The translations under genes were made by a program, and so were the position numbers. Below, piece after piece: positions 8,556 to 61,841 of a stretch of 64,000 bases of DNA (the stretch's first letter is position 1; every line of letters starts with the position of its first letter). This stretch comes from an uncultured Candidatus Saccharibacteria bacterium (GTDB lineage: Bacteria; Patescibacteriota; Minisyncoccia; Phycocordibacterales; DATGWK01). The notes under the pieces are model-generated. The model saw only the letters and a list, made by a program, of their open reading frames with translations. It did no database searches and had not been told where the DNA came from. Where the stretch lies: contig CAYRZH010000001.1 of NCBI GenBank assembly GCA_964428845.1, positions 74,990 through 138,989 of the forward strand, given 5' to 3'.

Positions 8556-8566
8556 AAAGTTTTCTG

Positions 8567-10414: not shown

Positions 10415-10428
10415 GGCTAACCGCCTGG

Positions 10429-11646: not shown

Positions 11647-11661
11647 GAGTTTATTATCGAT

Positions 11662-13416: not shown

Positions 13417-13518
13417 AATCTAGAATATAGAGCAAGCTAATTATATCAAACAAACAAAAAACCTATCCCGAGAGATTGGGATAAGTTTTTTAGACAGAGT
13501 TTCTTTTGTGAACCAAAT

Positions 13519-14553: not shown

Positions 14554-14588
14554 AAAATTAAGATATAAATAAACTAGCTCCATCTCTT

Positions 14589-16212: not shown

Positions 16213-16222
16213 GTTTTAAAAA

Positions 16223-17605: not shown

Positions 17606-17795
17606 AAAAATGGGCTTTGCTTGCCTGATTTTAGCATGAAATATCAACAAGATTGTTCACCTACTCTACCCTTTTGTGGATAACGTTGGAAACATTGGGG
17701 TTTTTGGACAATTTGACAAACACAAAAGAATTTACTAGTATATATGAGCATTTAGGTTCGCCCGTGGGCGGACTATTTTTTTAAAAAAATTCAAC

Positions 17796-45806: not shown

Positions 45807-46592
45807 ATGAGAGCAAAAAAATCACTCGGCCAAAATTTTCTTTCTTCGAGAAGAGCCCTCTCCCAAATAATTCAAGCCGGAAAGATCGAGCCAGGAGAGA
45901 TCGTGCTTGAGGTAGGCCCAGGCAGAGGAGCCCTCACCAGATTTCTTCTTGCGGCCGGAGCAAAGGTCATTTCTGTTGAAAAAGATGATGAACTGACTAT
46001 CTTTCTAAAAAAAGAATTCGAAGCCGAAGTCCTTACCGGGAACCTTACGCTTCTGAACACAGACATCCTTGAGATAAATCCGAACGACCTTGGTCTCTCT
46101 TCTGGTAAATACAAAATCATTGCAAATATACCCTACTACATAACTGGCCAATTCTTGAGAAAATTTATCTCTGGCGAAAACACTCCAAAGAGTATGGTTT
46201 TACTCCTCCAAAAAGAGGTTGTTTCTCGCATCATTGCCCGGGACGGCAAGGAAAGTATTTTATCTTTAAGTGTGAAAGCGTATGGGACAGCAAAACTTAT
46301 CGGGAAAGTGCCCGCTAGAGAATTTCGGCCAGCACCGAAGGTTGATTCGGCTATTATTGCCATAGAAAATATCTCTAAGAAGAATTTTCCAACCAAAGCT
46401 TCAGAAGAAAAATTCTTTGCACTTATAAAAAGTGGCTTTGCCCACAAAAGAAAAAAGCTAATAAGAAATCTGGAAACACTTTCGGATGCAAAAAGGTTAG
46501 AGAGTGCCTTCGAAAAATGCAAAATTCCTTCCGGTATGCGAGCGGAGGATCTAACGATAGATGACTGGCTCGCTTTGTCTCAACAAATTTAA
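45807..46592 (+). CDS. rsmA: 16S rRNA (adenine1518/1519-N6)-dimethyltransferase RsmA/KsgA
   Basis: LGQNFL…EVGPGRGALT…. Confidence 0.9.
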   Translation: MRAKKSLGQNFLSSRRALSQIIQAGKIEPGEIVLEVGPGRGALTRFLLAAGAKVISVEKDDELTIFLKKEFEAEVLTGNLTLLNTDILEINPNDLGLSSGKYKIIANIPYYITGQFLRKFISGENTPKSMVLLLQKEVVSRIIARDGKESILSLSVKAYGTAKLIGKVPAREFRPAPKVDSAIIAIENISKKNFPTKASEEKFFALIKSGFAHKRKKLIRNLETLSDAKRLESAFEKCKIPSGMRAEDLTIDDWLALSQQI

Positions 46593-46616: not shown

Positions 46617-46994
46617 CTAGAGGCTTGTGCCTGTCTGATGTATCACACCGAAGCTCGGCACTGGTACGCAAGCGAGACCTACCCAAATAAAACACGTTTG
46701 GATGCCCGGAACATAATCACCAAGCAGCCAGACGCCAGGCGAGGGTATCACGTGATGAGCAAAAACTATAGTGCCACCTGGTTGGTAGACCAGAGCTCCA
46801 GACATGGGGGCAGGGGAGAAAAACGGCGTCATATATAGCCAAAAATTGGCACTGCAGGTACAAGGGATTACATTTACCACAAAACCGCCGAATGATGTAA
46901 AACCAAGAGCATTTGCAAAAATCGGCAATGAAAATATGACGACAATCAAGGCCGTGCTCATTAGAATTTTTGGAAAGATTTTTACTGCTCTCAT
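46617..46994 (-). CDS. Small Cys-containing membrane/secreted protein (hypothetical) at the left edge of the T4SS-like cluster
   Basis: 125 aa with an N-terminal hydrophobic helix. Confidence 0.3.
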   Translation of the reverse strand: MRAVKIFPKILMSTALIVVIFSLPIFANALGFTSFGGFVVNVIPCTCSANFWLYMTPFFSPAPMSGALVYQPGGTIVFAHHVIPSPGVWLLGDYVPGIQTCFIWVGLACVPVPSFGVIHQTGTSL

Positions 46995-48136
46995 AATTTT
47001 ATTTTAAACATCCCCGGGCTTTTGCTGACTCCATTTTCATTCTGAATGTAAAGCCAGGCATCCATCTCGAGCGACTTTCCTCCTAGATATTTTTGGATAG
47101 TAGTCACTTGTGGGAAGTTCAGGACTTTTACTTTAATAAGTTTACCATCTATAGAAGAAATATTTGAGATATTTCCCAAGCTCGAGTAGATATTGTTGCC
47201 ATTTTCAGTAAAGCCAGAACCAGAAACTAAAATCTCATCACCCATGGTTGCGAGTGTTGGCGATATTTTCTCAATGTTTGGAGATACCTGGGGGTTGTTG
47301 GTTACTGAAATATAGATTGGAGCAGAAAAATTCTTACTTGATTCATTTTTATCAGTGGTAAACCAGATCTCATATTTTCCTATAGGGAAAGTTCCAGGGA
47401 TTGTGACGGTAAATGATTGGGGAGCATCGAGAACCGACGAAGAACCGCCAGAAGATTGTGTTGAAATTTCTGGTGGTGAAAAGCTGGGGAAGAGAGGTGC
47501 TGAATGAGTATAGCCTATATGCAATATATTTTTTTCTTTGGAAAATCCTACCCCCTTGATCTCGATAGTGTCACCAGGTCGAACTTGGTACTTTGAAACA
47601 CCGTAAATTTTTTGAAGATTTGCCTCTGTCGGAGGATTTACAGGATTTTGGGTGAGTAACGAATTTTGTGGGGTCTGGGTAGTCGGAGTCGAAACCGATA
47701 TCGTCGAAATCGGTGCCACCGAAACTGGCGTGGCCAAAACCTCGCCCAAAAGAGCGTTAAGTTTCGTCCGGGTAGCCCTTCCCACGAAACCAGTACCGAA
47801 GGTGAGACCGTTTGGCAATAAAATTTCAGACTTATGTGCCTCTTGGAAGGTGACTACGGCCCACCTGGTAAGTAAGCCAAAGTAGGTGGTTTCTTTACCA
47901 GGAGAGCCTGGACCATCGTTTGCCACCATGGTGGCTGGGTTTCTGTTGAGGAATTTCTGTAATTCCCTGACATCCTCGCCCACATCTCCCTCCTTCAAAT
48001 CACGGCTAAAAACAAAGCCGGCAGAGGCAGTAGAGGATTGAGCATCCACGTTAAAAACTATGGAAATGAAAAATGAGCCAAAAAATATGGAGCAGAGAAG
48101 GAAAACTGGCAACTTTTTTAGTTTTTCTTTGAGCAT
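46991..48136 (-). CDS. Secreted protein with a peptidoglycan-binding (PG_binding_1-like) domain
   Basis: Signal peptide; …DLKEGDVGEDVRELQKFLNRNPATMVANDGPGSPGKETTYFGLLTRWAVVTFQEAH…. Confidence 0.5.
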   Translation of the reverse strand: MLKEKLKKLPVFLLCSIFFGSFFISIVFNVDAQSSTASAGFVFSRDLKEGDVGEDVRELQKFLNRNPATMVANDGPGSPGKETTYFGLLTRWAVVTFQEAHKSEILLPNGLTFGTGFVGRATRTKLNALLGEVLATPVSVAPISTISVSTPTTQTPQNSLLTQNPVNPPTEANLQKIYGVSKYQVRPGDTIEIKGVGFSKEKNILHIGYTHSAPLFPSFSPPEISTQSSGGSSSVLDAPQSFTVTIPGTFPIGKYEIWFTTDKNESSKNFSAPIYISVTNNPQVSPNIEKISPTLATMGDEILVSGSGFTENGNNIYSSLGNISNISSIDGKLIKVKVLNFPQVTTIQKYLGGKSLEMDAWLYIQNENGVSKSPGMFKIKL

Positions 48137-48254
48137 CGAGGCCTCCAGGGCATTATACTCTTCTCAAATTGTCTTTTATCAACAGATTTTGTCTCTAATG
48201 TCGCTTTTTTAGGCCTTATTTTTGCTATAATTTTAAAGACTTCTGTAACTTAAC

Positions 48255-49241
48255 ATGTCTCTTAGAAAAACTACTCCAATCTTTATCGCTTGTGTATTTT
48301 CCTTTGGCCTTATTTTCTTTGCAGTAGCCAAAGATCAATCGATTTTCCCTCCGAAAGATACCGGGAGGGTTGGCACGGACGGCAAGGTAGACGCCGGGGT
48401 GAGGATTTTGGTGGAAAATGCCCTGGAAAATTCTGTCGATCAGGATGACGACGGTGACGGACTTAAGAATTGGGAGGAAATATTTTGGAAAACCAATCCA
48501 AAAGTCAAAGATAGCGACGGTGACGGTATCTCTGATAGCGAAGAAGTGAAAAAAACTGAAAAAAATATCGCTTATGGAGCAGAGGCTTCGGACAACCCAG
48601 CCACTGCAGTAAATTCTTCCAATGAACCCAAGACAAAAACTGGCGAGATCGGTAGGAATCTCTTTGCCGAATATTTGGAACTCAAACAGAGTGGAAGATT
48701 AAATCAGAGTTCAATGGAAAACTTGATTACAAAGACTCTTTCTCAAATAGACACCAAAACGAGCTCGTTTTATTCATCAGGAAGTGTGAAGACCACCCTT
48801 GATACAGATACTGCCGGAGCGAAGAATTATGCAAATGCTCTGGTGACAATAAGGGAAAAGTACAGAGCTTTGTATAACGAGAGCCCAATCATCACAGTAG
48901 CAAAAACTATAAACTTTGAAGACGAAGCCTCGGTCGAGAGCATAAGAAGGGCGGCAAATTTATATAAACTCGAGGCACAAGAACTCGCCAGCCTAATAGT
49001 TCCGAAAAGTTTGGTGGCTGGACACTTGGCTCTCCTCAACAGCTATGCAGCCAGCGCAGAGGGTTTGGCCCAGTTCGCTGAACTTCGCTCTGACCCACTT
49101 ATGGCCGTAGCAGGGATACAAGAACATGCCGCGGCGGTAGGACAGGAATTTGAAATTGTTCTTAGTATAAGCCGTTTTTTCGAGAGTCGGGGAATCGTCT
49201 TTGAATCACAGGAGGCTGGTGCTCGGATAAAAAATATATGA
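48255..49241 (+). CDS. Secreted protein with thrombospondin-type-3-like Ca-binding DxDxDG repeats
   Basis: Signal peptide, then DQDDDGDGLKNWEE / DSDGDGISDSEE. Confidence 0.45.
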   Translation: MSLRKTTPIFIACVFSFGLIFFAVAKDQSIFPPKDTGRVGTDGKVDAGVRILVENALENSVDQDDDGDGLKNWEEIFWKTNPKVKDSDGDGISDSEEVKKTEKNIAYGAEASDNPATAVNSSNEPKTKTGEIGRNLFAEYLELKQSGRLNQSSMENLITKTLSQIDTKTSSFYSSGSVKTTLDTDTAGAKNYANALVTIREKYRALYNESPIITVAKTINFEDEASVESIRRAANLYKLEAQELASLIVPKSLVAGHLALLNSYAASAEGLAQFAELRSDPLMAVAGIQEHAAAVGQEFEIVLSISRFFESRGIVFESQEAGARIKNI

Positions 49242-50899
49242 TTTTTGAAGCCATAAAACAATACACGGCGGTACTACTTTTTATAATATTCGTAACAACC
49301 CCCGTGTTTTTGGCCGGGCCAAAGAATGTAAATGCCCAATTTGGTGGAGCCTCTAGTTTTGCGGGTGGTGCGGCACTAGCAGTACCGACAAGCGACGTGG
49401 TACTTGGTCCGAAGGAAGCGGGAATAAGTGTTTTCGGCGTCACACTCCCGATAAGCCTTGATGGACTTGCTTACATGGCAGCAAACGTAGTGATCGCCCA
49501 AATTACCGACAGCATCGTGACGTGGATTGATTCTGGTTTTCAAGGAAGCCCAGCTTTCATAGAAGATCCTGGAGCTTGGTTTCTTGAGACCGCAGACATG
49601 GTGAGCGGGGCATTTATCGAAGAGCTTGGAGCCGAAGACTTACTCTGTGACCCATTTGCTCCTATTCGCATCACCCTTTCTTACAACTACAACAGATCAT
49701 TCCCACGAGATTACAGATGTAAACTTTCTGACGTCATAGAAAATGTTGAGAATTTTGCAAAATTTACAGCGGGGGACTTCACTGGCCAGGGAGGGTGGCA
49801 GTCTTGGTTCAATATTACTCAAAACCGTCAAAATAATCCCTATGGAGTTTACTTCGGTGCCCAAATTGAGCTCGACAGGAGAATTGCCAACGCTATCGGA
49901 CGTGAGAGTGATACGCTCAACCAAGGCAAGGGCTTCCTTTCGATGCGAAGATGTAAGGTTTGGGATACGGCAAACGGCCAAGAACCAGGGCCAAACAACC
50001 CGACGAGTGGAACCCTTCAGCATGATTGTAAGGAATACGGACCGATCGAGACTCCCGGGTCTATCGTCGAAGATCAGTTGAACAGAGCTCTGGGTTCAGA
50101 GTTAAACAGGATTGAGGTAGCAGATGAAATAAATGAAATCTTGAGCGCGCTTGTAAACCAGCTCGTGAAGACTGTGTTTACAGCTGGACTCTCAAACGTC
50201 AGCCACGGCAATATCTTTGACCCGGGTAGTGTAAATGCCGACTTTGAGGTTTCTTGCAGTTACAGCCCAAATGAGCCACTTTTTCTCGATCCACCGACTG
50301 TTACCCAGACGGAACAAGTAAAGTGGAAAGTGAGTGTCCTTGGGGGAGCGGGGGAGACGACATATAGATGGTCATTCACGGGAGATCCGATCCCAGTCGC
50401 GACACCTTTCATACTTACAAACGCAACAGTAACGCCGGTGGTTTACTCGAGTGCTGGAGTAAAAACAACCAAAGTAGAGGTCGAGAAAGAAACAGAGTTT
50501 GGAAAAATCAAAAAGACAGCGAACTGCTCGCTTACTGTTTTGCCAAATCCACCACTTGAAGTAACGAGCTGTAATGTTGTTCCTCCATCGATCCGACGCG
50601 AACAGCAACCGGACGAAATGGCCATGTGGACACTCAAAGCGAGCGGCGGTGTTTCTATTCCAAATCCAAATATTCCTTTCAATATGGGTTTCTGTATTTT
50701 CACAGGACAATCTGACGATGGACCTTTCGGTATTTCCGTCCCTCTCACGGGAACAACCCTGGAATCATCGTGTTCTCTTACTACTGGAGCCGAATTCTTC
50801 GATCGCTCCGGAGAGCACTACGTAAACGTACTCGTAAGTTCGGGTGAGCAATCCGTCACAAGACAAGGTTGCGGGCCATTGATCATTCTCGACCCATGA
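49238..50899 (+). CDS. Large secreted/membrane-anchored hypothetical protein
   Basis: 553 aa with an N-terminal transmembrane signal anchor. Confidence 0.4.
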   Translation: MIFEAIKQYTAVLLFIIFVTTPVFLAGPKNVNAQFGGASSFAGGAALAVPTSDVVLGPKEAGISVFGVTLPISLDGLAYMAANVVIAQITDSIVTWIDSGFQGSPAFIEDPGAWFLETADMVSGAFIEELGAEDLLCDPFAPIRITLSYNYNRSFPRDYRCKLSDVIENVENFAKFTAGDFTGQGGWQSWFNITQNRQNNPYGVYFGAQIELDRRIANAIGRESDTLNQGKGFLSMRRCKVWDTANGQEPGPNNPTSGTLQHDCKEYGPIETPGSIVEDQLNRALGSELNRIEVADEINEILSALVNQLVKTVFTAGLSNVSHGNIFDPGSVNADFEVSCSYSPNEPLFLDPPTVTQTEQVKWKVSVLGGAGETTYRWSFTGDPIPVATPFILTNATVTPVVYSSAGVKTTKVEVEKETEFGKIKKTANCSLTVLPNPPLEVTSCNVVPPSIRREQQPDEMAMWTLKASGGVSIPNPNIPFNMGFCIFTGQSDDGPFGISVPLTGTTLESSCSLTTGAEFFDRSGEHYVNVLVSSGEQSVTRQGCGPLIILDP

Positions 50900-53148
50900 T
50901 AATTGCTAATCAAAAAAAGGGGTGGGGTGCAAAAAAAATTATTGCAAAACTATTTTTGTTGTTGGTAATTATTTCTGGAGTCATTGTGCCAATCTGGACC
51001 AGCAATTTAGTGGTATATGCGCAAGGCTCCCCAACCAATTTTGAGATAGAGCCAATACCAACAGCGCTTGAAGTCGCTGTAAGCACTGTCGACAATACCA
51101 TATCCGCCATAGCAAATCTTCCAGACAAACTCCTCAATGCTTTTACAAACTTCGTCGGCACCCTTTTTCTAACGATAACAGCGTGGCTACTTGGTATTTC
51201 AGGACTCCTTTTCAACGAAGTCATAACCTTCACGGTCTTGAAGATGAATACTCATGTAAGTTCTATCCCGGCAATAGATATAGCTTGGAAAGGCATGCGG
51301 GACCTGGCCAACATATCTTTCATATTTATCCTCCTTTACATCGCAATAGGAACAATACTTGGACTAGGGAGGATAAATACCAAGAAGATGCTCGTGAAAG
51401 TCATAATCATAGCCCTACTTTTAAATTTCAGCTTGTTCTTCACAAAATTGCTGATAGACGCCTCAAATATAATCTCGATCGGCTTTTACAACAAAGTGGC
51501 TCTGTCATCACCAGAGCGCGCGGTCAATGGTCTAAGCGGCGCCTTCATGGATGCGATTGGCCTGACTCGTATTTTCGACGTAGCGGGAGTATCAAACCTT
51601 CTAGCCAACCTTGACCCAATGAAAATGATCATCGTCGGAATTTTCGGAGGAATTCTATTTCTGGTAACGGCTTTTATATTCATGGCCGGAGCTATTATGT
51701 TTATAATACGTTTTGTCACTCTTATTTTCCTGATGGTTTTTTCTCCGTTGGCTTTTGCCGCCATGGCTCTTCCGAGCGACAAGTATTCAAGCAAGTGGTG
51801 GAATAAACTCTGGGACAATCTAATATTTGCTCCAGTATTCATGGTGCTGATCTGGACAACCTTTACACTATTTGCTGGACCGGGCGGGATCCTCAAACGA
51901 ATATCTGGAGGAAATATACTCGATATTGCTTCGGGTAGCGCCGCCGCGGGCTTTGCGCCTGGCGCACCACCAGTGGGAGCCTTCGGCACACTCATGAGTT
52001 TCATAATCGTCATCGTAATGATGGTGGCAACACTTATCGTCTCCAAACAACTCGGTGCGGCTGGAGCAAGCGGGGCATTGAAGCTTGGAAATAAATGGAG
52101 GGGTAAGGCCCAAGGGGTACTTGGGAGGGGAACGCTACGAATGACACCTTTAAGGACTATTGATAAAAAATGGTCTGAATCCCCACTTGGTCAAACTGCG
52201 ATCGGTAGAGGTTTGAGAAATATCACGACCGGTGTGGGCATGAACGCAGAATTTGGAAGTGGTAAATCAATTTCCAAAGTAGACAAAGAACTTAAAAAAT
52301 CAAGGGAAGACTACGCAAACAAGCAGGCTGAAAAGGTTCAAAACAAACATGATAAAGAAGAAGCAGAAAATGAGTACGAGAAAAGGAATCTCTTGTCAGT
52401 AATATCAGACAGAAGTGCAACCAGCACGGCCAGACATGGTGCACACGGCAGACTGCTTGAAAAAGAAAGAGGTCGTCTCTCAAAGCTCGATACATTGCGT
52501 GCAAGTGCTGTAAAAAGAAGAGCTTTCGATGAAGTGAATGAGATTGATACAATGAAAAAGTCTGTTTTGGATAGAGTCACTAAGATGCAGGCAAAACAAG
52601 CTCTCGGCGAGGCAACCTTCGTGGCTGATTGGGATACGACACCAGATGATGATCTAAAGAAATATGTAAAAGATATTACAGTTGACATTCCGGGAACCGA
52701 TGATAAAAAACTTCGACTAAAGATGGCCCAACGTGCCCAAGCGATACGAGTAGAGGAGGGGGGAATCATTAGAAAAACAGCTAACACAATTGCCTCCAGC
52801 CGTGCCGGATCCGTTGTCGGTAGTGTCGCAGGAGGAGTTGCAGGTGGTGTCGCGGGAGGGGTTGTGGGCAGTGTCACCGCCGGTCCCCTTGGTGCTATTG
52901 CGGGCACAGTAATTGGTGCGGGATTGGGAGGAACCAAGGGGGGTCGTAAATTCACAGCCAAAACCAAAAAATATCTCTATGGCGACGCACAATCCGCTCG
53001 ACTCTCGACTATCAAAACCTTGAGGGAGAATGCAAAAAAGGGTAAGGCTGGAGGTGGGTCTCTGGACGAACAACTCCGCGCAATATTGGATCAAGCTGGC
53101 GGCCCACCGGCCCCCGCAGCCGGAGGAGGCGGAGGTGGAACACCTTAA
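50869..53148 (+). CDS. VirB6/TrbL-like polytopic membrane protein with a Gly/Ala-rich C-terminal tail
   Basis: 759 aa with at least 7 transmembrane helices over the first 400 aa, a long charged coiled-coil middle, and the C-terminal repeat GSVVGSVAGGVAGGVAGGVVGSV…GGGGGG. Confidence 0.5.
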   Translation: MRAIDHSRPMIIANQKKGWGAKKIIAKLFLLLVIISGVIVPIWTSNLVVYAQGSPTNFEIEPIPTALEVAVSTVDNTISAIANLPDKLLNAFTNFVGTLFLTITAWLLGISGLLFNEVITFTVLKMNTHVSSIPAIDIAWKGMRDLANISFIFILLYIAIGTILGLGRINTKKMLVKVIIIALLLNFSLFFTKLLIDASNIISIGFYNKVALSSPERAVNGLSGAFMDAIGLTRIFDVAGVSNLLANLDPMKMIIVGIFGGILFLVTAFIFMAGAIMFIIRFVTLIFLMVFSPLAFAAMALPSDKYSSKWWNKLWDNLIFAPVFMVLIWTTFTLFAGPGGILKRISGGNILDIASGSAAAGFAPGAPPVGAFGTLMSFIIVIVMMVATLIVSKQLGAAGASGALKLGNKWRGKAQGVLGRGTLRMTPLRTIDKKWSESPLGQTAIGRGLRNITTGVGMNAEFGSGKSISKVDKELKKSREDYANKQAEKVQNKHDKEEAENEYEKRNLLSVISDRSATSTARHGAHGRLLEKERGRLSKLDTLRASAVKRRAFDEVNEIDTMKKSVLDRVTKMQAKQALGEATFVADWDTTPDDDLKKYVKDITVDIPGTDDKKLRLKMAQRAQAIRVEEGGIIRKTANTIASSRAGSVVGSVAGGVAGGVAGGVVGSVTAGPLGAIAGTVIGAGLGGTKGGRKFTAKTKKYLYGDAQSARLSTIKTLRENAKKGKAGGGSLDEQLRAILDQAGGPPAPAAGGGGGGTP

Positions 53149-53151
53149 AAA

Positions 53152-53919
53152 ATGGAAGATAAAACAGTAATAAAAGAATATTTTGAGGCGGTAGATAGCA
53201 AACTCCAGAAGTTGCTTGTCTCGCCTATAGTAAAGAACACTACGGAGAAAATCCTGCAGAAATATCCACTTCGAGAAGAACAGGGGAGTCAGCTTGAAAT
53301 TGAAATCTCTTTGGTCTTGCTTGGTATGGAAGTTGTGAGCAACTTCCGGGCAAACTTAGTGAGAGAGCTCGGGATCACATACGACCAAGCACTCAAACTC
53401 TCACTTGAAGTAAATAAGGAAATTTTTGACCAGGTGATGACAGAACTCAAAGAAATGGAAGTCGATATTCTCACCGCCGGAGAAAAACCCGAAACAAACG
53501 AGACAGCTGGAAAAGAAGAGTTAAAAGAAAAAGAAATTGCACCAAAAAATACTGTTCTTGAAAAACAGGTTGCAAGTAATACTCTTGATCGTTCGATACC
53601 CGACCACGAGGCGATGGTCAAAGAAAGCGGCCCACATCTCCACAGCCAGACAGTGATGCCACAAAACACAACAAAAACTCCTCCTCCGATACCAAAAGTC
53701 GCCCCTGCCCCACAAAACATTCCATCGGCTACCGAAGAGGAAGTTCAACAATTTGGAACTATTATCGACAGGAAGTTGAGTCAGGCAATGAGAGGATTCG
53801 GTAATACAAATGGTTCGGATACAAATAAAGCACCATCACCGCAGACTAGTACTACCACAAGTCCAGGGTCACAAAATAGATACAAAGGTCCAGACCCTTA
53901 CCGAGAACCAATAGAATAA
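53152..53919 (+). CDS. Hypothetical protein (Pro/Thr-rich C-terminus)
   Basis: 255 aa, found only through the ORF. Confidence 0.3.
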   Translation: MEDKTVIKEYFEAVDSKLQKLLVSPIVKNTTEKILQKYPLREEQGSQLEIEISLVLLGMEVVSNFRANLVRELGITYDQALKLSLEVNKEIFDQVMTELKEMEVDILTAGEKPETNETAGKEELKEKEIAPKNTVLEKQVASNTLDRSIPDHEAMVKESGPHLHSQTVMPQNTTKTPPPIPKVAPAPQNIPSATEEEVQQFGTIIDRKLSQAMRGFGNTNGSDTNKAPSPQTSTTTSPGSQNRYKGPDPYREPIE

Positions 53920-53929
53920 AAAACGAAGT

Positions 53930-54379
53930 ATGCGTTTCCAAGTACCACAATTCACTGAAGTTGAAGATAAAGTCATCGGGCCACTAACCCTGAAGCAATT
54001 CATATACCTTGCTGGAGCAGTCGGCGCCTGCATTATCCTCTACACGCTTTTACCAAAATTCATTTCTTTTGTTCTCATGATCCCGGTATTGGTCTTGGGT
54101 GCCGCTCTGGCGTTTTACAAAGTAAATAACCGCCCCTTCATTCGTGTTCTTGAATCATCTGTTAAATATTTTATAGCCAGCAAACTATATATCTGGAAAC
54201 ACAAAGAAAAAAAGATTGTGTCTGAAGGACAAACAAGCAAGGCCTCTGTGTTTGTACCCAAACTTTCAGAAAGTAAGCTCCGTGATCTCACCTGGAGTCT
54301 AGATGTAAAACAAAATTTGGATTCCGGAGAGATAAAGCAGGCCCGGGTAAACGAAGGAAAAATAGATCTAAGTGTCTAA
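53930..54379 (+). CDS. Small two-transmembrane membrane protein (VirB3/PrgI-like position)
   Basis: 149 aa with two hydrophobic helices, sitting just upstream of the VirB4-like genes. Confidence 0.35.
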   Translation: MRFQVPQFTEVEDKVIGPLTLKQFIYLAGAVGACIILYTLLPKFISFVLMIPVLVLGAALAFYKVNNRPFIRVLESSVKYFIASKLYIWKHKEKKIVSEGQTSKASVFVPKLSESKLRDLTWSLDVKQNLDSGEIKQARVNEGKIDLSV

Positions 54380-54395
54380 GTGATATAATAAATCA

Positions 54396-55061
54396 ATGGC
54401 AACGGCAGCAAAAGCTACTCAAGAGTTCGTCCCTATAAAAGAAGTGCGGGACGGAATAGTTGTCCTCAAAGACGGCTCGCTACGAGCAGTTGTACTTGCT
54501 TCATCTCTCAATTTTTCTCTAAAGTCCGATGATGAGAGGCAGGCTATCCTTCTTCAGTTCCAAGATTTTTTAAATTCACTCGATTTTTCTGTGCAAATTT
54601 CTGTCCAATCCAGAAAGCTCGACATAAGACCGTACATTGCTCTCCTTGAGCAACAAGAAAAGAAGCAAACGAATGACCTCATGAAGATACAGGTTCAAGA
54701 ATATATAGAATTCATAAAAAGTTTTACCGAAAATACGAACATAATGACCAAACACTTCTTTGTAATAGTCCCTTTTTCTCCAACAATGATCGGGCCGAAG
54801 TCGGGCAGTGGATTTTTCGGTGGCATAAAAAGCGCTCTGCCTAGCGCCAAAAAGGGAGGAGTCGAGATCAGTGATGAGGTTTTTGAGGAGTATCGAACCC
54901 AGCTCGCCCAAAGAGTTTCTGTGGTAGAGCAAGGCCTTGTCCGATGCGGAGTTCGGGTAGCAGAACTTGGAACAGAAGAGGTTGTCGAACTCTTCTACAA
55001 ACTCTTCAACCCTGGCGAGGCCGAGAAGCCGATTCAGCTTGACCAAAACACAACCCAATAA
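54396..55061 (+). CDS. VirB4 N-terminal-domain-like protein (possibly a split or frameshifted part of the downstream ATPase)
   Basis: 221 aa, …GIVVLKDGSLRAVVLASSLNFSLKSDDERQAILLQFQDFLNSLDFSVQISVQSRK… resembles the N-terminal domain of VirB4/TrbE. It ends 2 nt before the next gene, in a different frame. Confidence 0.35.
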   Translation: MATAAKATQEFVPIKEVRDGIVVLKDGSLRAVVLASSLNFSLKSDDERQAILLQFQDFLNSLDFSVQISVQSRKLDIRPYIALLEQQEKKQTNDLMKIQVQEYIEFIKSFTENTNIMTKHFFVIVPFSPTMIGPKSGSGFFGGIKSALPSAKKGGVEISDEVFEEYRTQLAQRVSVVEQGLVRCGVRVAELGTEEVVELFYKLFNPGEAEKPIQLDQNTTQ

Positions 55062-55063
55062 AC

Positions 55064-56887
55064 ATGTCATTTTTAGGTAATATTTTTAAAAGGAAAGAGA
55101 AGATCGAACGAAATCCGATAGCACCATTTTTGCCGCAACAAATCTATGACGCCGGGGCACTCGAATTCAAGGATGTTATCGCCCCAAGTGCACTTAAGAT
55201 CGGTCCACGCGACCTAAACCTCGGAGACAAACTCGTAAGAACTTTCTTCGTCATCTCCTACCCGCGATTCTTGAGCGAAAGCTGGTTTGCTCCGATCATA
55301 AACCTCGATAAGGTTTTCGACGTGTCTATCTTTGTTCACCCAGTAGACACAGTAAAAGCTCTGCGAGAGTTCCAGAAAAAAGTAGCGGAGGTCCAGAGCC
55401 AGATACACGAGAGGGAGGCTAAGGGCATGGTGCGCGATCCAATGCTCGACACCGCACACGAAGATCTTGAGGACTTACGTGATAGCTTACAGCAGGCACG
55501 CGAAAAGCTTTTCGACGTAGCCCTCTATATCTCGATCTATGCAGAAAGTGAGACAGAGCTCGATAAGGTGGAGTCTGAAATCAAATCCATCCTCGAGTCA
55601 AAACTTATATACGTAAAACCAGCTCTATTCCAACAAGAACAAGGTTTCAAAAGTGTCATCCCGATCGCAACCGACATCCTAGAAGTTCACTCGAAACTAA
55701 ACTCTTCTCCACTATCAAGCATTTTCCCATTTATCTCTTTTGACCTTACATCCAACAAAGGAATTCTCTACGGCGTAAATCGCCACAACTCAAGCCTCGT
55801 GCTTTTTGATCGCTTTTCTATGGAAAATTACAACTCCATTACCTTCGCAAAATCAGGAGCCGGAAAATCTTATGCCATAAAGCTCGAGATCTTGCGAACA
55901 CTTATGTTTGACACAGAAGTGATCGTTATCGACCCAGAACGAGAGTATGAATACATGGCCGAGACGGTGGGCGGTAGGTATTTTAAGATTTCCCTTACTT
56001 CAGATCACCATATCAATCCATTCGACCTTCCACCAGCAAACGAAGACGAGCCAGCCGCTTCCGTACTTCGCTCAAATATCATTAATTTGATTGGTCTTTT
56101 CCGACTGATGATGGGCGGCCTTACACCAGAAGAAGACGCTATTATCGATCGAGCTATCACGGAAACTTATGCCCTCAAAGACATCACAGCAGATTCTGAC
56201 TTCAGAAATATTGAGCCGCCCCTTATGTCAGATTTTGAGTTGGTACTCTCTGGCATGGAGGGCGGTGAGTCGCTCGCCCAACGACTTAGCAAGTACACCA
56301 AGGGCACATGGGCGGGTTTTATAAATCGACCCACAAATATCGATATAAATAAAAAGTTTGTTGTCTTCTCACTTCGAGACATGGAGGACGAGCTGAAACC
56401 GATCGCCATGTATATTGTCACTCACTACATCTGGGGGGCAATAAGAAGAGAGTTGAAACGACGACTCTTGGTAATAGACGAGGCTTGGTGGATGATGAAA
56501 TCCGAAGATACCGCATCTTTCCTGCTTTCGCTCGCAAAACGTGGAAGGAAATATTATCTCGGGCTCGCTACTATCACCCAGGACGTCGACGATTTCATGA
56601 AATCGCCTTATGGCCTTCCGATCATTACCAATTCGTCTATACAAGTACTTCTCAAACAATCACCGACGTCTATCGACTCACTCCAGCAAACATTCAATCT
56701 AACAGATGAAGAAAAATATCTGCTGCTCGAAAGTGATGTGGGGGAGGGGATCTTCTTCGCTGGCCTCAAGCACGTGGCCATAAAGGTTATCGCTTCCTAC
56801 ACAGAAGATCAGATAATCACTTCCGATCCATCACAGATACTTTCAATCCAAAAATCACGAGAAGAGTTAGAGGCAACTGGAGGTTAA
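55064..56887 (+). CDS. VirB4/TrbE-family type IV secretion ATPase
   Basis: 607 aa with Walker A FAKSGAGKSY and Walker B LLVIDEAWWMM. The fold is that of a conjugative ATPase. Confidence 0.65.
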   Translation: MSFLGNIFKRKEKIERNPIAPFLPQQIYDAGALEFKDVIAPSALKIGPRDLNLGDKLVRTFFVISYPRFLSESWFAPIINLDKVFDVSIFVHPVDTVKALREFQKKVAEVQSQIHEREAKGMVRDPMLDTAHEDLEDLRDSLQQAREKLFDVALYISIYAESETELDKVESEIKSILESKLIYVKPALFQQEQGFKSVIPIATDILEVHSKLNSSPLSSIFPFISFDLTSNKGILYGVNRHNSSLVLFDRFSMENYNSITFAKSGAGKSYAIKLEILRTLMFDTEVIVIDPEREYEYMAETVGGRYFKISLTSDHHINPFDLPPANEDEPAASVLRSNIINLIGLFRLMMGGLTPEEDAIIDRAITETYALKDITADSDFRNIEPPLMSDFELVLSGMEGGESLAQRLSKYTKGTWAGFINRPTNIDINKKFVVFSLRDMEDELKPIAMYIVTHYIWGAIRRELKRRLLVIDEAWWMMKSEDTASFLLSLAKRGRKYYLGLATITQDVDDFMKSPYGLPIITNSSIQVLLKQSPTSIDSLQQTFNLTDEEKYLLLESDVGEGIFFAGLKHVAIKVIASYTEDQIITSDPSQILSIQKSREELEATGG

Positions 56888-56893
56888 AACAAC

Positions 56894-57289
56894 ATGGATA
56901 ATGGCGAAAGAAAAATAAACAATACCACGCTCGCCTTTATGCTCGTTGTGGCGGGAGCGATCGACCTAGTCCAATTTTTTTTAGGACTATTGTTCGTCGG
57001 CTTGTTTATGAACTGGGCAATAAGCATCATCGTTTGGTTAACATTTTATCTATGGTTCAAGATAAAGGGCGTTGATTTCTTCTACAACCCATGGAGGGTG
57101 CTCGGTTTTGGAGGAGGCCTCGTGGCCGAGGTTGTACCGATCTTAAACCTCCTCCCAGTTTGGACGGCTGCAGTTATTTTTGTAGCCTTATCCCAAAGGG
57201 CAGAGGAGGCGGCGAAAAAGGGAGGGGTGGTCGGCAACGTGGCCAAAGTAGCGAATACTACAGCCACAACATTCAAGAAAGCGGCTTAA
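56894..57289 (+). CDS. Small polytopic membrane protein (hypothetical T4SS component)
   Basis: 131 aa with 3-4 hydrophobic helices. Confidence 0.3.
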   Translation: MDNGERKINNTTLAFMLVVAGAIDLVQFFLGLLFVGLFMNWAISIIVWLTFYLWFKIKGVDFFYNPWRVLGFGGGLVAEVVPILNLLPVWTAAVIFVALSQRAEEAAKKGGVVGNVAKVANTTATTFKKAA

Positions 57290-57319
57290 TAGGCAAAGTT
57301 ACTGTGGTAGAATAAGAGT

Positions 57320-58327
57320 TTGAGTATGGTCCAGTCTAAACCTTTGAAAAAGAGTTCCTTCTGGTTATTTAAGATAAGTTTTTTGCTTTTTTTTCTTACT
57401 TTTTCGGCACAAGTAGGGGCTCAAACATTTGGTGAGACACTCGATCTTACTGTCTCTCCCAAGAATCCTACGCCTTTCGGTCATGTATATATGAGTGTAA
57501 AAAGCGTCGTTCAGGATTTGAATACAAAAGAAGTAACTTGGTATTTAAATGGAAAGGTGGCACGGCGTGGAATAGGGGAGAAGAGCTTTGAGTTTGACTT
57601 AGGGGGTCTCGGCAGTGTCTCCTCTGTCGGCGTAAGCGCTGGCGGTCTTTCAAAAAATATTGATATAAGACCGACAGATGTTGATTTGGTTTGGGAATCT
57701 GACGGATTTACTCCACCCTTCTACAAAGGCAAAGGCTTGCGCGCCTTTCAGGGGAATTTGAGAGTTATTGCAATTCCACACTTCATTACACCCCAAGGCA
57801 CAACATTAAATCCAAAAGATCTTATTTATTCTTGGTACAACGGTAACATTTTAAATGCTAGTGCCTCTGGTTATGGAAAAAATTCTCTAACATACGCCGG
57901 TTCAGTAATATCACGGCCCCTGAATATTGAAGTCCGAGTTTCTTCAAGAGACGGTTCCTATCAGGGAGGTAAAGAAATCATCGTCGAAGAAACTACCCCG
58001 GCCCTGCTCATCTACGAAGACCACCCTCTCTACGGCGTACTTTATAACAACGCACTTGGCGGAAAAGAATTTAGCCTAAAAGACAGAGAAGTGAAGATAA
58101 CGGCCGTTCCTTACTTCTTTTCGACAAAAAATAAGGGTGACGCAAAGTTAAAATATTCTTGGAGTATAAATGGTTCACTGCGCGAGGGGTCCAACTTTAA
58201 AGACTCTGTCATATTCAGACAAGAGGGCAATGTGGCCGGCCTCTCAAGTGTTTCACTTTTGGTGGAAAATAAACAAGAGTTCTTGCAGGCTTCTCGGGCG
58301 GCGTTTGGAATAAGATTTGAAAAATAA
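57320..58327 (+). CDS. Secreted hypothetical protein
   Basis: 335 aa with a signal peptide (…FSAQVGAQT). Confidence 0.4.
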   Translation: MSMVQSKPLKKSSFWLFKISFLLFFLTFSAQVGAQTFGETLDLTVSPKNPTPFGHVYMSVKSVVQDLNTKEVTWYLNGKVARRGIGEKSFEFDLGGLGSVSSVGVSAGGLSKNIDIRPTDVDLVWESDGFTPPFYKGKGLRAFQGNLRVIAIPHFITPQGTTLNPKDLIYSWYNGNILNASASGYGKNSLTYAGSVISRPLNIEVRVSSRDGSYQGGKEIIVEETTPALLIYEDHPLYGVLYNNALGGKEFSLKDREVKITAVPYFFSTKNKGDAKLKYSWSINGSLREGSNFKDSVIFRQEGNVAGLSSVSLLVENKQEFLQASRAAFGIRFEK

Positions 58328-59051
58328 AATGCAAATTAAACTTTTAAAACGATCGAGTAGAAAAAGTTTTGCAATCCTCTCCATTTTCTGTCTGGTATTG
58401 CTTTTTGGACTATCGATATCGAATACACTCTACGTTGAGGCGCAGCCAGACCCATCACCTTTCGGGGAATACGAGCCTCTAGAACCACTTTCAAACACAT
58501 TGACCAACCAGAGTGTATCTACCAATCTTGCGCAGTACGCGAGAGGTCTCTTCGGCCTTTTAATAGGGGTGGCGGCGGGACTCGCAGTGATAATGATCAT
58601 TATTGGAGGTATCCAATACATGTCGACCGATGCAATAAGCGGGAAGTCCGAAGGGAAAGAAAAAATAAGGCAGGCGCTTTACGGTCTTCTTCTGGCGATG
58701 GCTTCCTGGCTCATACTCTTCACGATAAATCCAGAACTTTTGGACTTCGGTCTTTTGAATAGTATCCCGCAGACACCGGTGGTAACGCCAACAAACACAG
58801 GATCGACAACCCCACCGTCAGTGGCGCAATTTGTAAATACTCCAAACTGGCCAGGGTGGTACGTTCGACAGAAATATCAGTGTGAATATCCTCCAGACAA
58901 CAGCGGTCCGCATTTTGTTTACTACGGTCCCCTTGAAGAAGAGAGATGCAGATATCTCCTTTCGGCGTCTTTCCAGGAATATAATTGTTATCATAACCCC
59001 TCCATAAATATGATCATATTATCGGAGGAATGTGTTCCGTTTGATCCGTAA
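58317..59051 (+). CDS. VirB2/TrbC-like pilin candidate
   Basis: Signal peptide, then two hydrophobic helices (GLFGLLIGVAAGLAVIMIIIGGIQYM; LYGLLLAMASWLILFTI) separated by a short charged loop. This topology is typical of T4SS pilins. Confidence 0.4.
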   Translation: MKNKMQIKLLKRSSRKSFAILSIFCLVLLFGLSISNTLYVEAQPDPSPFGEYEPLEPLSNTLTNQSVSTNLAQYARGLFGLLIGVAAGLAVIMIIIGGIQYMSTDAISGKSEGKEKIRQALYGLLLAMASWLILFTINPELLDFGLLNSIPQTPVVTPTNTGSTTPPSVAQFVNTPNWPGWYVRQKYQCEYPPDNSGPHFVYYGPLEEERCRYLLSASFQEYNCYHNPSINMIILSEECVPFDP

Positions 59052-59074
59052 CCTCATTTGAAAAAATTGGCCTC

Positions 59075-60367
59075 ATGAAAAAAATCCTCACAATAATCAT
59101 AATAATCCTCATCATCGTCGCAGTAGGCTTTGGCGCATACTGGTTTTTCGACAAGCAGGAAACGGGTGGGGAGGGGAGTTTCAATATTAGCGACTACTTT
59201 CCTTTCGGCCGAGGGCCAGAGTCTCCTGTGCCTGAACCAACTGGGGGCAACAACACTCCAAACACCGGTGGGGTCCCGGAACCAGGCAGTGGCACTAGCG
59301 AGGTAACACTCACCCCACGTATCTGGCAGATTTCAGAAAATCCACAGTCTGGTGCGGTTATATTCCAAACAAAAGACGCCAGTGGCACCAGCACAGCCGT
59401 TCGATATCTAGACCGAGCCACGGGTAATGTATTCGAGAGTAAACTTTCAGTCCTCGGCCGAAAAAGAGTTTCCCTTACAACAATCCCGAAGGTTCACGAG
59501 GCTTTGTGGTTGCCTGGAGGTGGGTCGCTGATCTTGAGATACCTGCCTGATGATAGTAGTGATATAAAAAATCTTTACGCAAAAATAATTCCGCAAACCG
59601 CTACAACTTCCGAGATCGGAGGGGAAGAACTGCAAGAACTTCAGGGAACTTTTCTTCCTGGAGGCTTGAGTGGCATTGCGATCGAGGCAGGGAACACCGG
59701 AAATGAGAGAATCTTTTATCTGGGAGAAAGTCAGACGGGGGGAATGTCGGGTTTTATCTCAAATCCGGATGGAAGCAAGATTTCTGTTGTGTTTGATTCT
59801 CCAGTTCGTGGGTGGCTATCTTCATGGCCCAAAAAAGAGATAGTGGCCTTAAACACCAAGCCGAGCGCTGGAGTCCCTGGCTACTTATATTTTGTCGACA
59901 CCAAGTCGGGATCTTTCAAAAAAATCTTGGGTGGAATAAAAGGCCTAACCACCCTTACAAAACCCGACGGGAAACAAGTTTTGTATGCTGAAAGCAAATC
60001 TAGCGGTATCTCTTTGGGAATCATTTCAACAAATTCAACCCAAAACTTCGCCCTTCCACAGAAGACACTGCCAGAAAAATGCGTGTGGAGTACTCTTAAA
60101 GAATCCGTAATCTATTGCGCTGTTCCAAAATTTCTACTAGACGCCCAATACCCAGACGCGTGGTACCAAGGGGCTCTATCTTTCAATGACTCAATATGGA
60201 GAATAAATGCGTCGACAAGTGAATCAGAGATGATTGTTGATCCAAGGGTGGCGATGGACAGAGAGGTTGATGCTGTAAATCTTGCTCTCGACAAGGATGA
60301 GAAGTTTTTGATCTTCACAAACAAGAAAGATTACCAGTTGTGGGGGGTTAGATTGTTGGAACAGTAA
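59075..60367 (+). CDS. Membrane-anchored extracellular protein (hypothetical)
   Basis: 430 aa with an N-terminal transmembrane helix (ILTIIIIILIIVAVGFGAYWFF). Confidence 0.4.
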   Translation: MKKILTIIIIILIIVAVGFGAYWFFDKQETGGEGSFNISDYFPFGRGPESPVPEPTGGNNTPNTGGVPEPGSGTSEVTLTPRIWQISENPQSGAVIFQTKDASGTSTAVRYLDRATGNVFESKLSVLGRKRVSLTTIPKVHEALWLPGGGSLILRYLPDDSSDIKNLYAKIIPQTATTSEIGGEELQELQGTFLPGGLSGIAIEAGNTGNERIFYLGESQTGGMSGFISNPDGSKISVVFDSPVRGWLSSWPKKEIVALNTKPSAGVPGYLYFVDTKSGSFKKILGGIKGLTTLTKPDGKQVLYAESKSSGISLGIISTNSTQNFALPQKTLPEKCVWSTLKESVIYCAVPKFLLDAQYPDAWYQGALSFNDSIWRINASTSESEMIVDPRVAMDREVDAVNLALDKDEKFLIFTNKKDYQLWGVRLLEQ

Positions 60368-60399
60368 AAGAATGGGGGAGTTCGAGTGGGCACCGAAGT

Positions 60400-60510
60400 G
60401 AGGTGCACAATATCATCTTCGGGATACGCATAATTTTCTACTGAAAATTTGCTCCCTCTCGGCCGCCTACGCGGCCTCCGAGAGCCCCCTCCGACGATAT
60501 TGTGCACCTC
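60400..60510. repeat. Nested hairpin element between convergent genes: a 15-bp perfect inverted repeat gaggtgcacaatatc / gatattgtgcacctc enclosing the inner hairpin ctctcggccgc-ctac-gcggcctccgagag
   Basis: Arms at 60400-60414 and 60496-60510 are exact reverse complements. The inner motif at 60456-60484 recurs with covariation at 34053-34075. Confidence 0.6.
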
Positions 60511-60573
60511 TCTTAAGTTTTGCGAGATTCCGTCTCGGTGTCTACTCGGGTTCCCCCAACATTCCCTCGACAT

Positions 60574-61320
60574 TCAACCAATTTTAGACTTCACCGTCCT
60601 TCTGATGACAAGCTCTTGCCCGATTGTAAAGATATTACTCGTGATCCAATAGATAGCGATCGCTCCAGAAATACTCCAAGAGATAAAGAAGGCTAGAACT
60701 GGAAAGACGTAGCGCATCTGGATATTCATACTTCTAGCAAGATCTTCTTTGAATGTGTTTGCTTTTGGTGTCACGCCTGGCCCTGTGGCGGTCTTTGGCT
60801 TCGGTGGCATCGACAGACGGATCTGGACGTATGTCGAAACCCCAGCGATAAGCGCTAGAATCAAGCTTTTTCCGGAAATATCTACTAGATCAAGAAATTT
60901 GATGTTTATGTGGGCCGGGATTGAAACAAAAGAGTAGAGTAGCTCTGTGTTTATGGATGGGAGACCAGAGGACAAAAAAACCTTATAGAGAGCAAAGATG
61001 ACCGGCAGCTGGATGAGGATAAGGAGAATGCTAGAGAACGGGTTTATCCCTTGTTCTTTGTAAAGCTTCATCGTCTGGCGAGCCTGCTCCTGTTTATCCT
61101 CTTTGTATTTTTCCCTTATGGAGGCAAGCTCTGGCTCAACCTTCTTCATTCTAAGTTGTGTCGTTATGGCCTTTTTCGAGAGAGGGAAGAGAATGAGTTT
61201 GACGATAATGGTTAGAATAACTATTGCCACACCAGCATCGATCCACGAACTAATGTCCATCAAAAAAATCAACCCGTTATAGAGGGGTTGGTAGATGAGG
61301 GTATTATAAAGATAAGACAT
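60574..61320 (-). CDS. yidC: Membrane protein insertase YidC (short form)
   Basis: 248 aa with about 5 transmembrane helices in the YidC/Oxa1 family. It lies in the conserved rnpA-yidC context. Confidence 0.85.
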   Translation of the reverse strand: MSYLYNTLIYQPLYNGLIFLMDISSWIDAGVAIVILTIIVKLILFPLSKKAITTQLRMKKVEPELASIREKYKEDKQEQARQTMKLYKEQGINPFSSILLILIQLPVIFALYKVFLSSGLPSINTELLYSFVSIPAHINIKFLDLVDISGKSLILALIAGVSTYVQIRLSMPPKPKTATGPGVTPKANTFKEDLARSMNIQMRYVFPVLAFFISWSISGAIAIYWITSNIFTIGQELVIRRTVKSKIG

Positions 61321-61706: not shown

Positions 61707-61841
61707 CTATACTACTAGCCTTTTTCTGCCCTTACTTCGCCTTCTTTTGACGGTCCTTCTTCCGCCCGGGGTTCTTTTCCTCAAGAGAAAGCCGTGGGAT
61801 CGAGCTCTTTTTCGTTTCTTGGGTTGGTATGTTTGAGACAT
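61707..61841 (-). CDS. rpmH: 50S ribosomal protein L34 (not in the ORF track because it is under 60 aa)
   Basis: Reverse-complement translation gives [44 protein letters not shown] (44 aa), a canonical L34. ATG at complement of 61839-61841. Confidence 0.8.

Follow-up and report, generated by a model that had tools for sequence, protein, structure and literature searches.

A patescibacterial type IV secretion locus beside dnaA, with a single pilin of variable C-terminal domain

We analyzed a 64-kb stretch of DNA (the window; contig CAYRZH010000001.1 of assembly GCA_964428845.1, deposited as an uncultured Candidatus Saccharibacteria bacterium) which contains, at positions 46617-60367, a cluster of genes for a type IV secretion system (T4SS) lying between ksgA (45807-46592) and yidC (60574-61320, minus strand). 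As shown in Table 1, the cluster comprises 13 open reading frames (ORFs), all of them intact, in two divergent units with two genes on the minus strand and 11 on the plus strand. An earlier reading of the same DNA (the original prediction) had counted two minus-strand and 12 plus-strand genes; the former count stands, and the latter becomes 11. The two minus-strand genes overlap by 4 nucleotides (nt) and, given this overlap, are co-transcribed. In the plus-strand run (48255-60367), neighboring genes overlap or lie no more than 30 nt apart, and because of this spacing we regard them as one operon of typical appearance. Hydropathy profiles agreed with the earlier description of several products as signal-anchor proteins, and an all-against-all hhalign comparison of the 13 gene families gave no sign of hidden paralogy (the small membrane proteins, for example, do not include a second pilin). 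As set out below, the locus is the published chromosomal T4SS of Patescibacteria in its Paceibacteria/Parcubacteria-type arrangement.

Table 1. Genes and spacers of the T4SS cluster, in window positions
Feature	Position	Strand	Basis or remark
Secreted/membrane protein, 125 aa	46617..46994	-	N-terminal signal/anchor, C-terminal hydrophobic segment, 4 Cys (ORF, hydropathy)
Peptidoglycan-binding protein, 381 aa, secreted or anchored	46991..48136	-	Pfam PG_binding_1
118-bp divergent spacer between transcription units	48137..48254	.	Sequence reading
TSP3 Ca-binding signal-anchored protein, 328 aa	48255..49241	+	Pfam TSP3_bac; first gene of operon
Cys-rich secreted protein, 553 aa, 10 Cys	49238..50899	+	Alignment, synteny
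VirB6/TrbL-like polytopic membrane protein, 759 aa	50869..53148	+	Transitive homology, fold
255-aa protein, no transmembrane helix	53152..53919	+	Slot between VirB6 and VirB3
PrgI family protein (VirB3 equivalent), 149 aa	53930..54379	+	Pfam PrgI
TrsD-like protein, 221 aa, soluble	54396..55061	+	NCBIfam models
VirB4-type ATPase, 607 aa, CD1110/MPF_FATA type	55064..56887	+	Pfam, NCBIfam
Polytopic membrane protein, 131 aa, ~3 transmembrane helices	56894..57289	+	Hydropathy
Membrane-anchored protein, 335 aa, three Ig/FN3-like domains	57320..58327	+	Structure model
VirB2-type pilin, 244 aa	58317..59051	+	Pfam T4SS_pilin
Membrane-anchored protein, 430 aa, probable beta-propeller	59075..60367	+	Hydropathy, weak family matches; last gene of operon
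Structured spacer between operon end and convergent yidC	60375..60530	.	Folding energy

The motor of the system is the best-defined part of the cluster. The 607-aa protein, which had been proposed to be a VirB4/TrbE-type ATPase, passes the cut-off of the NCBIfam model conju_CD1110 (1.2e-111, 374 bits against a cut-off of 325), matches Pfam P-loop_TraG (6.9e-26) as well as AAA_10 and, weakly, CagE_TrbE_VirB, and contains both of the motifs on which the proposal was based, i.e. AKSGAGKSY (Walker A) at residue 262 and VIDEAW (Walker B) at residue 470. A profile of its family recovered PrgJ (2e-51), pSK41 TraE (5e-41), and a Geobacillus VirB4 (1e-83). Judged by these matches, the protein is a VirB4 of the monoderm (MPF_FATA/CD1110) type and belongs to the Gram-positive CD1110 family. 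We note that it aligns to conju_CD1110 only from model position 184 onward. The 221-aa gene immediately upstream, which ends 2 nt before virB4 and was left without a name in the original prediction, encodes a TrsD-like protein, residues 6-125 of which match positions 2-118 of conju_CD1110 (5.6e-8), positions 102-233 of VirB4_plasma, the VirB4 model of Mycoplasma integrative and conjugative elements (ICEs; 1.5e-10), and positions 14-142 of the TrsD/TraD model (2.2e-6, under the cut-off of that model). As the regions of conju_CD1110 matched by the two proteins are complementary, it follows that VirB4 is split here and that the 221-aa protein represents its detached N-terminal domain. This link is drawn from NCBIfam family models; hhalign comparisons of the 221-aa family with VirB4 of the same loci, pSK41 TrsD, and pCF10 PrgJ yielded nothing usable because the alignments were too shallow (effective number of sequences, ~2), and a sequence-profile search of the PDB with this family gave no meaningful match. 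The small membrane protein predicted to be in a VirB3-like position proved to be PrgI (Pfam PrgI, 8.3e-14, 52 bits against a cut-off of 27), has two transmembrane helices by hydropathy, and, as a family profile, matches PrgI of a Geobacillus plasmid (5.6e-8).

The PrgI/TrsD-like/VirB4 triad is seen again on plasmids of Firmicutes. Homologues of the TrsD-like protein were found by tblastn in 129 plasmid records, mostly of Firmicutes (Bacillaceae and Clostridia) and some haloarchaeal. The Geobacillus plasmid pGspE55-1 has the order PrgI, TrsD-like homologue, VirB4, large protein, and M23 peptidase, and profile searches confirmed the first three as counterparts of the genes described here. When all families of the cluster were compared by hmmsearch with the T4SS proteins of pCF10, pSK41, and Geobacillus, only VirB4, PrgI, and the TrsD-like protein were matched; other small matches were discarded as driven by low complexity or transmembrane segments.

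The cluster encodes two further core components. The 759-aa protein has seven to eight hydrophobic helices, with a transmembrane core at residues ~60-400 by hydropathy, followed by a long coiled coil and a Gly/Ala-rich C-terminal extension. Pfam TrbL scores above its cut-off in two homologues, and an hhalign comparison with pSK41 TraL picked out a conserved SPLA...WW motif. This protein and the 335-aa protein discussed below are the two for which structure models were made. The AlphaFold model of the 759-aa protein has a mean predicted local distance difference test score of 73, with block means mostly of 80-97 over residues ~80-400, and in a Foldseek search of the PDB its five best matches were all TrwI/VirB6 of plasmid R388, with DotA also among the best. 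This indirectly supports the view that the protein is an extended VirB6; thus, the VirB6/TrbL-like protein with a Gly/Ala-rich tail of the original prediction has its helices and tail in plain view and its identity from homologues and modeled fold. The 244-aa protein, proposed to be a TrbC/VirB2-like two-helix pilin, passes Pfam T4SS_pilin (7e-7, 29.7 bits against a cut-off of 26.6) and begins with a signal peptide, which is followed by two hydrophobic helices and then, through a Thr/Pro linker, by a 108-aa C-terminal domain that contains four Cys residues. Among its orthologues, T4SS_pilin was detected in 40 of 46 and TrbC in two of 46.

The surroundings of the cluster bear on whether it is a mobile element. 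On its 3' side lie yidC, rnpA, rpmH (61707-61841, minus strand), and dnaA (61998-63377), and on its 5' side ksgA and then a UvrD/PcrA helicase gene. The description of the cluster as origin-proximal is upheld by the genes directly downstream; a DnaA-box search (at chance level) and GC skew gave no independent signal of an origin. A VirB4 search limited to one genome per species returned 568 relatives, the best 80 of which (77-86% identity) are the related loci referred to throughout. PrgI is present in 79 of these 80 by tblastn, and the TrsD-like protein also in 79 of 80, with a median identity of 64%. Full 10-kb flanks were available for 44 of the 80 loci, each from a different species-level genome, and in all 44 the order is uvrD, ksgA, [small protein, peptidoglycan-binding protein], TSP3 protein, 553-aa protein, VirB6, VirB3, TrsD-like protein, VirB4, Ig-like protein, pilin, propeller-like protein, yidC, (rnpA), (rpmH), dnaA. 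Because the same place and order recur in 44 of 44 genomes, we regard the cluster as a vertically inherited core locus rather than an ICE. Further, in 51 of 51 genomes VirB4 exceeds DnaA in conservation, by a mean of 17 points (~80% against 62% identity, a gap slightly inflated by the ranking of loci on VirB4), and it likewise exceeds YidC, KsgA, and UvrD in each genome for which the comparison was made. Such a pattern is consistent with purifying selection that is strong, and unusually so for a secretion ATPase.

We also weighed the possibility that the cluster is a conjugative element (an ICE, or what is left of one after decay) that has inserted beside the origin. VirB4, PrgI, the TrsD-like protein, and VirB6 are indeed homologous to parts of conjugative plasmids and ICEs of Firmicutes, and a tyrosine recombinase gene is located at 37384-38331. 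However, this gene lies 8 kb off, behind housekeeping genes, and is XerC/D-like in size and domains; the chromosomal context is invariant across the 44 genomes; the GC content of the cluster does not differ from that of the rest of the window; none of the ORFs shows decay; and VirB4 is conserved beyond DnaA. The conjugation genes proper are also missing. A domain scan of 31 ORFs of the window outside the cluster, including all of at least 440 aa, found no VirD4 or relaxase domain, and tblastn searches in which two Gram-positive VirD4s and three relaxases served as queries found nothing in the window and nothing within 10 kb of virB4 in the 80 related loci (1.34 Mb). The original prediction had seen no obvious transfer-origin features; no search aimed specifically at oriT was made. 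The fixed synteny, taken with the missing conjugation genes, rules out a conjugative element to our near-complete satisfaction. The original prediction that neither relaxase nor VirD4 occurs in the window, and that the cluster is something other than an ordinary ICE, is thus sustained, and the CD1110-type VirB4, the PrgI/TrsD-like/VirB4 triad, the missing VirD4 and relaxase, and the fixed locus together support its broader proposal of a non-conjugative T4SS of the Gram-positive or candidate phyla radiation (CPR) style. The XerC/D-like recombinase gene is on the minus strand, upstream of the cluster.

As a proxy for the placement of VirB4 in the Patescibacteria clade, we considered the names of its relatives. 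All of the best 80 of the 568 VirB4 relatives are metagenome-assembled genomes (MAGs), and every taxon-specific name among them belongs to Patescibacteria; the informative names are Paceibacterota, Parcubacteria, and Zambryski-, Taylor-, Campbell-, and Wolfebacteria. The earlier comparison with the T4SS of Saccharibacteria was therefore right as to the CPR style; as to the group, the relatives are mostly named Paceibacteria or Parcubacteria, not Saccharibacteria. Many third-party MAGs (roughly 33) titled 'uncultured Candidatus Saccharibacteria' carry the locus, with 77-84% VirB4 identity and the same synteny. Because they have the same locus and the homologues named elsewhere are all Paceibacteria, Parcubacteria, or Patescibacteria, these titles appear to be generic or wrong taxonomic labels.

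The arrangement agrees with published systems (PMC10633639, PMC12102498, and PMC12857230). In a survey of 3,035 genomes, Quinonero-Coronel et al. (2025, Microb Genom, PMC12102498) reported that the majority of VirB4s group as a Patescibacteria clade inside MPF_FATA, that TrsD, PrgI, VirB6, and VirB2-like pilins cluster with virB4, that relaxases are nearly absent and homologues of the type IV coupling protein (T4CP) usually lie far from virB4, and that in Paceibacteria and other classes the locus is found near dnaA, dnaN, rnpA, ksgA, and rpmH. The VirB4 type, the adjoining TrsD, PrgI, VirB6, and pilin genes, the location, and the missing relaxase and nearby T4CP are all matched by the locus described here, and at the level of the system we see no difference from the Paceibacteria arrangement given in the survey. 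In Southlakia epibionticum, transposon sequencing showed the T4SS to be essential for epibiotic growth (Wang et al. 2023, Cell, PMC10633639); this system includes pilins, has no recognizable coupling protein or relaxase, and is closest to Gram-positive conjugation systems. The cluster of strain ML1 (SEML1_0006-0019) shares the core order VirB6-like (0011), PrgI (0010), a hypothetical protein in the TrsD-like position (0009), and VirB4 (0008), and its pilins are of family PF18895. Southlakia, a member of Saccharimonadia, differs in having an array of six short pilins that diverge from one another, two VirB6-like proteins, an NTF2-like (VirB8-like) protein, and peptidase/lysozyme genes beside virB4, whereas the locus here has one pilin with a variable C terminus, one VirB6, no NTF2-like protein that we could find, and a peptidoglycan-binding protein that lacks a hydrolase domain. 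Only in Southlakia has the T4SS been shown to be essential; for the present locus, the greater conservation of VirB4 than of DnaA lends indirect support to a role in host-dependent growth. A 2025 FEMS review (PMC12857230) treats these systems as a recognized new group and speculates that the pilus is a conduit for exchange with the host. Because the locus matches the descriptions of Wang et al. and Quinonero-Coronel et al., we conclude that the finding is already known. Its interest is that the T4SS is one of few molecular handles on the life of these ultrasmall host-dependent bacteria and is essential to the only species so far tested. The present locus is no new kind of system; it offers, for the Paceibacteria, a clean and complete example in which 13 genes form a unit whose order is strictly maintained in many species and whose ATPase is under stronger constraint than DnaA.

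We next consider older T4SS types. The pSK41/pGO1 subclass and Bacillaceae plasmids such as pGspE55-1 resemble the locus in having a short VirB4 after a separate TrsD-type protein, a small VirB3-like protein, and a TrbL/VirB6 protein, and pSK41 also has a small CagC/VirB2-like gene. However, pSK41/pGO1-type systems carry VirD4, relaxase, a CHAP or M23 wall hydrolase, and DNA-processing genes on mobile plasmids, none of which is present at the fixed chromosomal locus described here. The VirB-type (MPF_T) systems of R388 and Agrobacterium share the two-helix VirB2-type pilin and the VirB4 motor; in contrast to these, the locus has no outer-membrane core (VirB7, 9, and 10), no VirB11, and no recognizable VirB5 or VirB8, the organism is taken from the literature to be a monoderm, and the pilin has a large extra C-terminal domain.

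From homology and the transposon sequencing work in Southlakia, we propose, with a probability of about 85%, that the cluster encodes a patescibacterial T4SS platform with wall and surface proteins that serves host attachment or exchange and not conjugation. VirB6, PrgI/VirB3, and the TrsD/VirB4 ATPase would form the platform in the inner membrane, with the motor docked on VirB6 by VirB3. VirB4 would pull pilin from the membrane, polymerizing a pilus or a short conduit across the cell wall, and the anchored Ig-like, propeller, peptidoglycan-binding, and Ca-binding proteins may build or stabilize the passage through the wall, standing in for VirB8 and VirB1. The variable C-terminal domain of the pilin would be exposed on the outside and contact the host cell, and the machine would serve host attachment and the exchange of proteins or small molecules, as opposed to conjugative DNA transfer.

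Several points weigh against this proposal. The 759-aa protein has no direct match in Pfam or NCBIfam, so that its assignment to VirB6 comes from fold and transitive homology, and its model gave modest Foldseek E-values (7e-3 to 0.1). Neither a VirB8-like nor a VirB1-like protein came to light in the cluster, and the roles given to the Ig-like, propeller, TSP3, and Cys-rich proteins were guessed from where their genes lie and from their folds. Distant VirD4/T4CP homologues occur in most Patescibacteria genomes, according to the literature, and a remote T4CP elsewhere in the genome could couple DNA or protein to the machine. Lastly, the function is predicted from the genes: no experiment has yet addressed a T4SS of Paceibacteria, nor has a pilus been observed.

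A VirB4 with neither T4CP nor relaxase nearby would also be expected of a machine for the uptake of DNA or nucleotides, comparable with Helicobacter ComB or archaeal Ced, by which a bacterium unable to make nucleotides imports host nucleic acid. The window contains a type IV pilus cluster, VirB4 has a weak partial match to CedB (NCBIfam, 2.9e-9), and uptake of molecules from the host is one of the published speculations (PMC12857230). We note, however, that the CedB match scores 36 bits against a cut-off of 700, whereas conju_CD1110 is passed, and that Pfam and NCBIfam scans of the cluster gave no VirB7-, VirB9-, or VirB10-like (ComB) and no CedA-like match. Further, competence in Southlakia needs the type IV pilus and ComEC, and a comEC deletion is viable whereas the T4SS is essential (PMC10633639 and PMC12857230), so that transformation does not explain the essentiality of the T4SS. 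The comEC result, together with the weak CedB score, leads us to disfavor DNA uptake, which we consider very unlikely. The type IV pilus cluster itself occupies 6417-17650 on the minus strand and includes genes for a PilB-type ATPase (11662-13416), a PilC-type platform protein (10429-11646), and a 615-aa protein with an N-methyl motif (8567-10414); among the large ORFs beside these genes, several have no family match and one is faintly like the CPR pilus protein PamR.

The most variable part of the locus is the C-terminal domain of the pilin. The pilin core matches 65 of 65 orthologues, with a median identity of 45%, whereas the 108-aa extension (window positions 58725-59048, plus strand) matches none of the 65. 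The parts of the orthologues that follow the second helix range from 12 to 445 aa, often have an even number of Cys residues, and cannot be aligned; 58 of these extensions were sorted into 28 classes with no relation to one another, 23 of which have a single member, and in one orthologue the place of the extension is taken by an NlpC/P60 domain. A search of 1.84 billion representative proteins with the C-terminal domain returned a match only to itself. A structure-clustering preprint places PF18895 in many freshwater-specific clusters, which is consistent with this diversity. The membrane topology puts the domain outside the cell, where it may be displayed along the predicted pilus or at its tip and could decide which host cell is recognized. 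It is the only rapidly changing exposed part of the locus. In the sections of the T4SS literature that we examined, no description of a swapped C-terminal pilin domain was found, and this detail may be new. We tentatively suggest, as a possibility that we consider less likely than not, that Paceibacteria have a distinct variant of the system in which a single pilin with an exchangeable, lineage-specific domain for host recognition is combined with a conserved set of anchored proteins (the three-Ig-domain, probable propeller, TSP3, peptidoglycan-binding, and Cys-rich proteins) that replace VirB8, VirB1, and VirB5 in the wall. Should the pilin domain be a host-recognition module, its sequence could serve to mark host range in uncultured lineages, and experiments could be aimed at it.

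The same features could be read to mean that the platform only assembles a VirB2-type pilus with a variable adhesin domain, i.e. an adhesion organelle through which no substrate passes. This would account for a conserved pilin core whose exposed domain is swapped between species, for the missing T4CP that would recruit substrates, and for the many folds of adhesion type (TSP3 repeats, Ig-like domains, and a probable propeller). On the other hand, a type IV pilus system for adhesion is already encoded in the genome, some orthologous pilins are nearly without an extension (down to 12 aa), and the large cytoplasmic coiled coil of the extended VirB6 and the highly conserved ATPase suggest that the machine does more, although we regard the last argument as weak. 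We consider a pilus-only organelle unlikely and retain the proposal of a platform for both attachment and exchange. As for the secreted proteins without an assigned function, which the original prediction took as possible substrates or adhesins, their strict synteny suggests that they belong to the machine as structural or accessory components and are not its cargo.

Among these proteins, the 553-aa Cys-rich protein is the closest companion of VirB6. It has a conserved N-terminal domain of ~320 aa with four conserved Cys residues and a variable C-terminal part, and its gene was found in 55 related loci, always directly upstream of the VirB6 gene with a median gap of 5 nt. A sequence-profile search of the PDB with the family gave no meaningful match. 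Nine relatives that were scanned showed near-threshold matches to Pfam DUF4141 at their N termini, which in two cases exceed the cut-off. In conjugative transposons of Bacteroides, the gene between traJ (VirB6-like) and traG (VirB4) encodes a DUF4141 protein (PMC10434189); the 553-aa protein may accordingly be a shared T4SS component, which we offer as a lead only.

Immediately downstream of virB4 and its small neighbor lies the gene for the 335-aa protein, which has one N-terminal transmembrane helix followed, in a high-confidence model, by three tandem beta-sandwich (Ig/FN3-like) domains. The possibility that it is VirB8 was rejected, as the model shows three beta-sandwiches and not an NTF2 fold. 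This protein is a candidate for an extracellular stalk or scaffold of the machine, and the presence of a conserved anchored protein with three Ig domains in the spot where VirB8 might be expected is possibly a new detail. The 430-aa protein has an N-terminal transmembrane helix, a Gly/Pro-rich linker, and a conserved Cys pair (C336 and C348, invariant in the alignment); its gene was found in 61 related loci, and its orthologues weakly match the propeller families PD40, DPPIV_N, and DUF5050 (two each), which makes a beta-propeller the probable fold of its ectodomain. The parts of the survey text used here (PMC12102498) contain no description of the three-Ig-domain, Cys-rich, propeller-like, and TSP3 proteins or of a single pilin with a swapped domain.

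The 328-aa protein, in which DxDxDG Ca-binding repeats had been noticed, matches Pfam TSP3_bac (2.1e-9, 37.5 bits against a cut-off of 25) and has a helical C-terminal part. Its repeats are weakly similar, by NCBIfam, to the cohesion and gliding adhesins MtsD and CglD, and its gene was found in 43 related loci. Across the divergent spacer, the protein predicted to have a peptidoglycan-binding domain does so (PG_binding_1, 8.6e-7, 29.5 bits against a cut-off of 23), and its C-terminal domains are beta-rich and weakly TIG/IPT-like (TIG, 0.006, below the cut-off); no hydrolase domain was found in it or elsewhere in the cluster. The gene was found by tblastn in 21 related loci, and the co-transcribed 125-aa gene, whose product matches nothing in Pfam or NCBIfam, at the same place in 19 of 80. 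The nearest hydrolase gene, encoding an M23 peptidase with two LysM domains, is located three genes upstream of the cluster (42451-43308, minus strand) and could be the VirB1-like hydrolase counted near virB4 in surveys. In some related loci, the M23/LysM gene stays upstream of uvrD.

Two positions in the operon are occupied by fast-evolving genes. The C-terminal half of the 255-aa protein is rich in Pro, Thr, and Ser and probably disordered, and the protein has no significant family match in Pfam or NCBIfam. Its gene was found by tblastn in seven loci only; because the gap between VirB6 and VirB3 nevertheless exceeds 300 nt in 57 of 57 loci, we conclude that the slot is conserved even though the gene evolves fast. 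The 131-aa gene is a second such slot kept in the operon: tblastn found it in 19 loci, and the gap after virB4 exceeds 300 nt in 59 of 66. Its product has no family match in Pfam or NCBIfam, and a similarity to pSK41 TraC (E 0.006) is weak and driven by transmembrane segments and was not relied upon.

Finally, we looked at the spacers that bound the operon. An extended -10-like sequence, TGCTATAAT, occupies 48223-48231 and precedes the first ATG of the operon (48255) by 24 nt. As a scan of the cluster with generic promoter and terminator consensus sequences did not rise above chance level, we regard it as a candidate promoter only. The 156-nt spacer that separates the operon from convergent yidC has a minimum free energy of -63.5 kcal/mol (z = -5.4, 200 shuffles) and contains 15-nt perfect inverted arms (60400-60414 and 60496-60510). 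An Rfam search gave no match for this spacer, and an interpretation as a repeat resembling a miniature inverted-repeat transposable element was rejected because the arms occur nowhere else in the window. Spacers of similar stability and unrelated sequence are present in four related loci, and the spacer is probably a bidirectional terminator hairpin.

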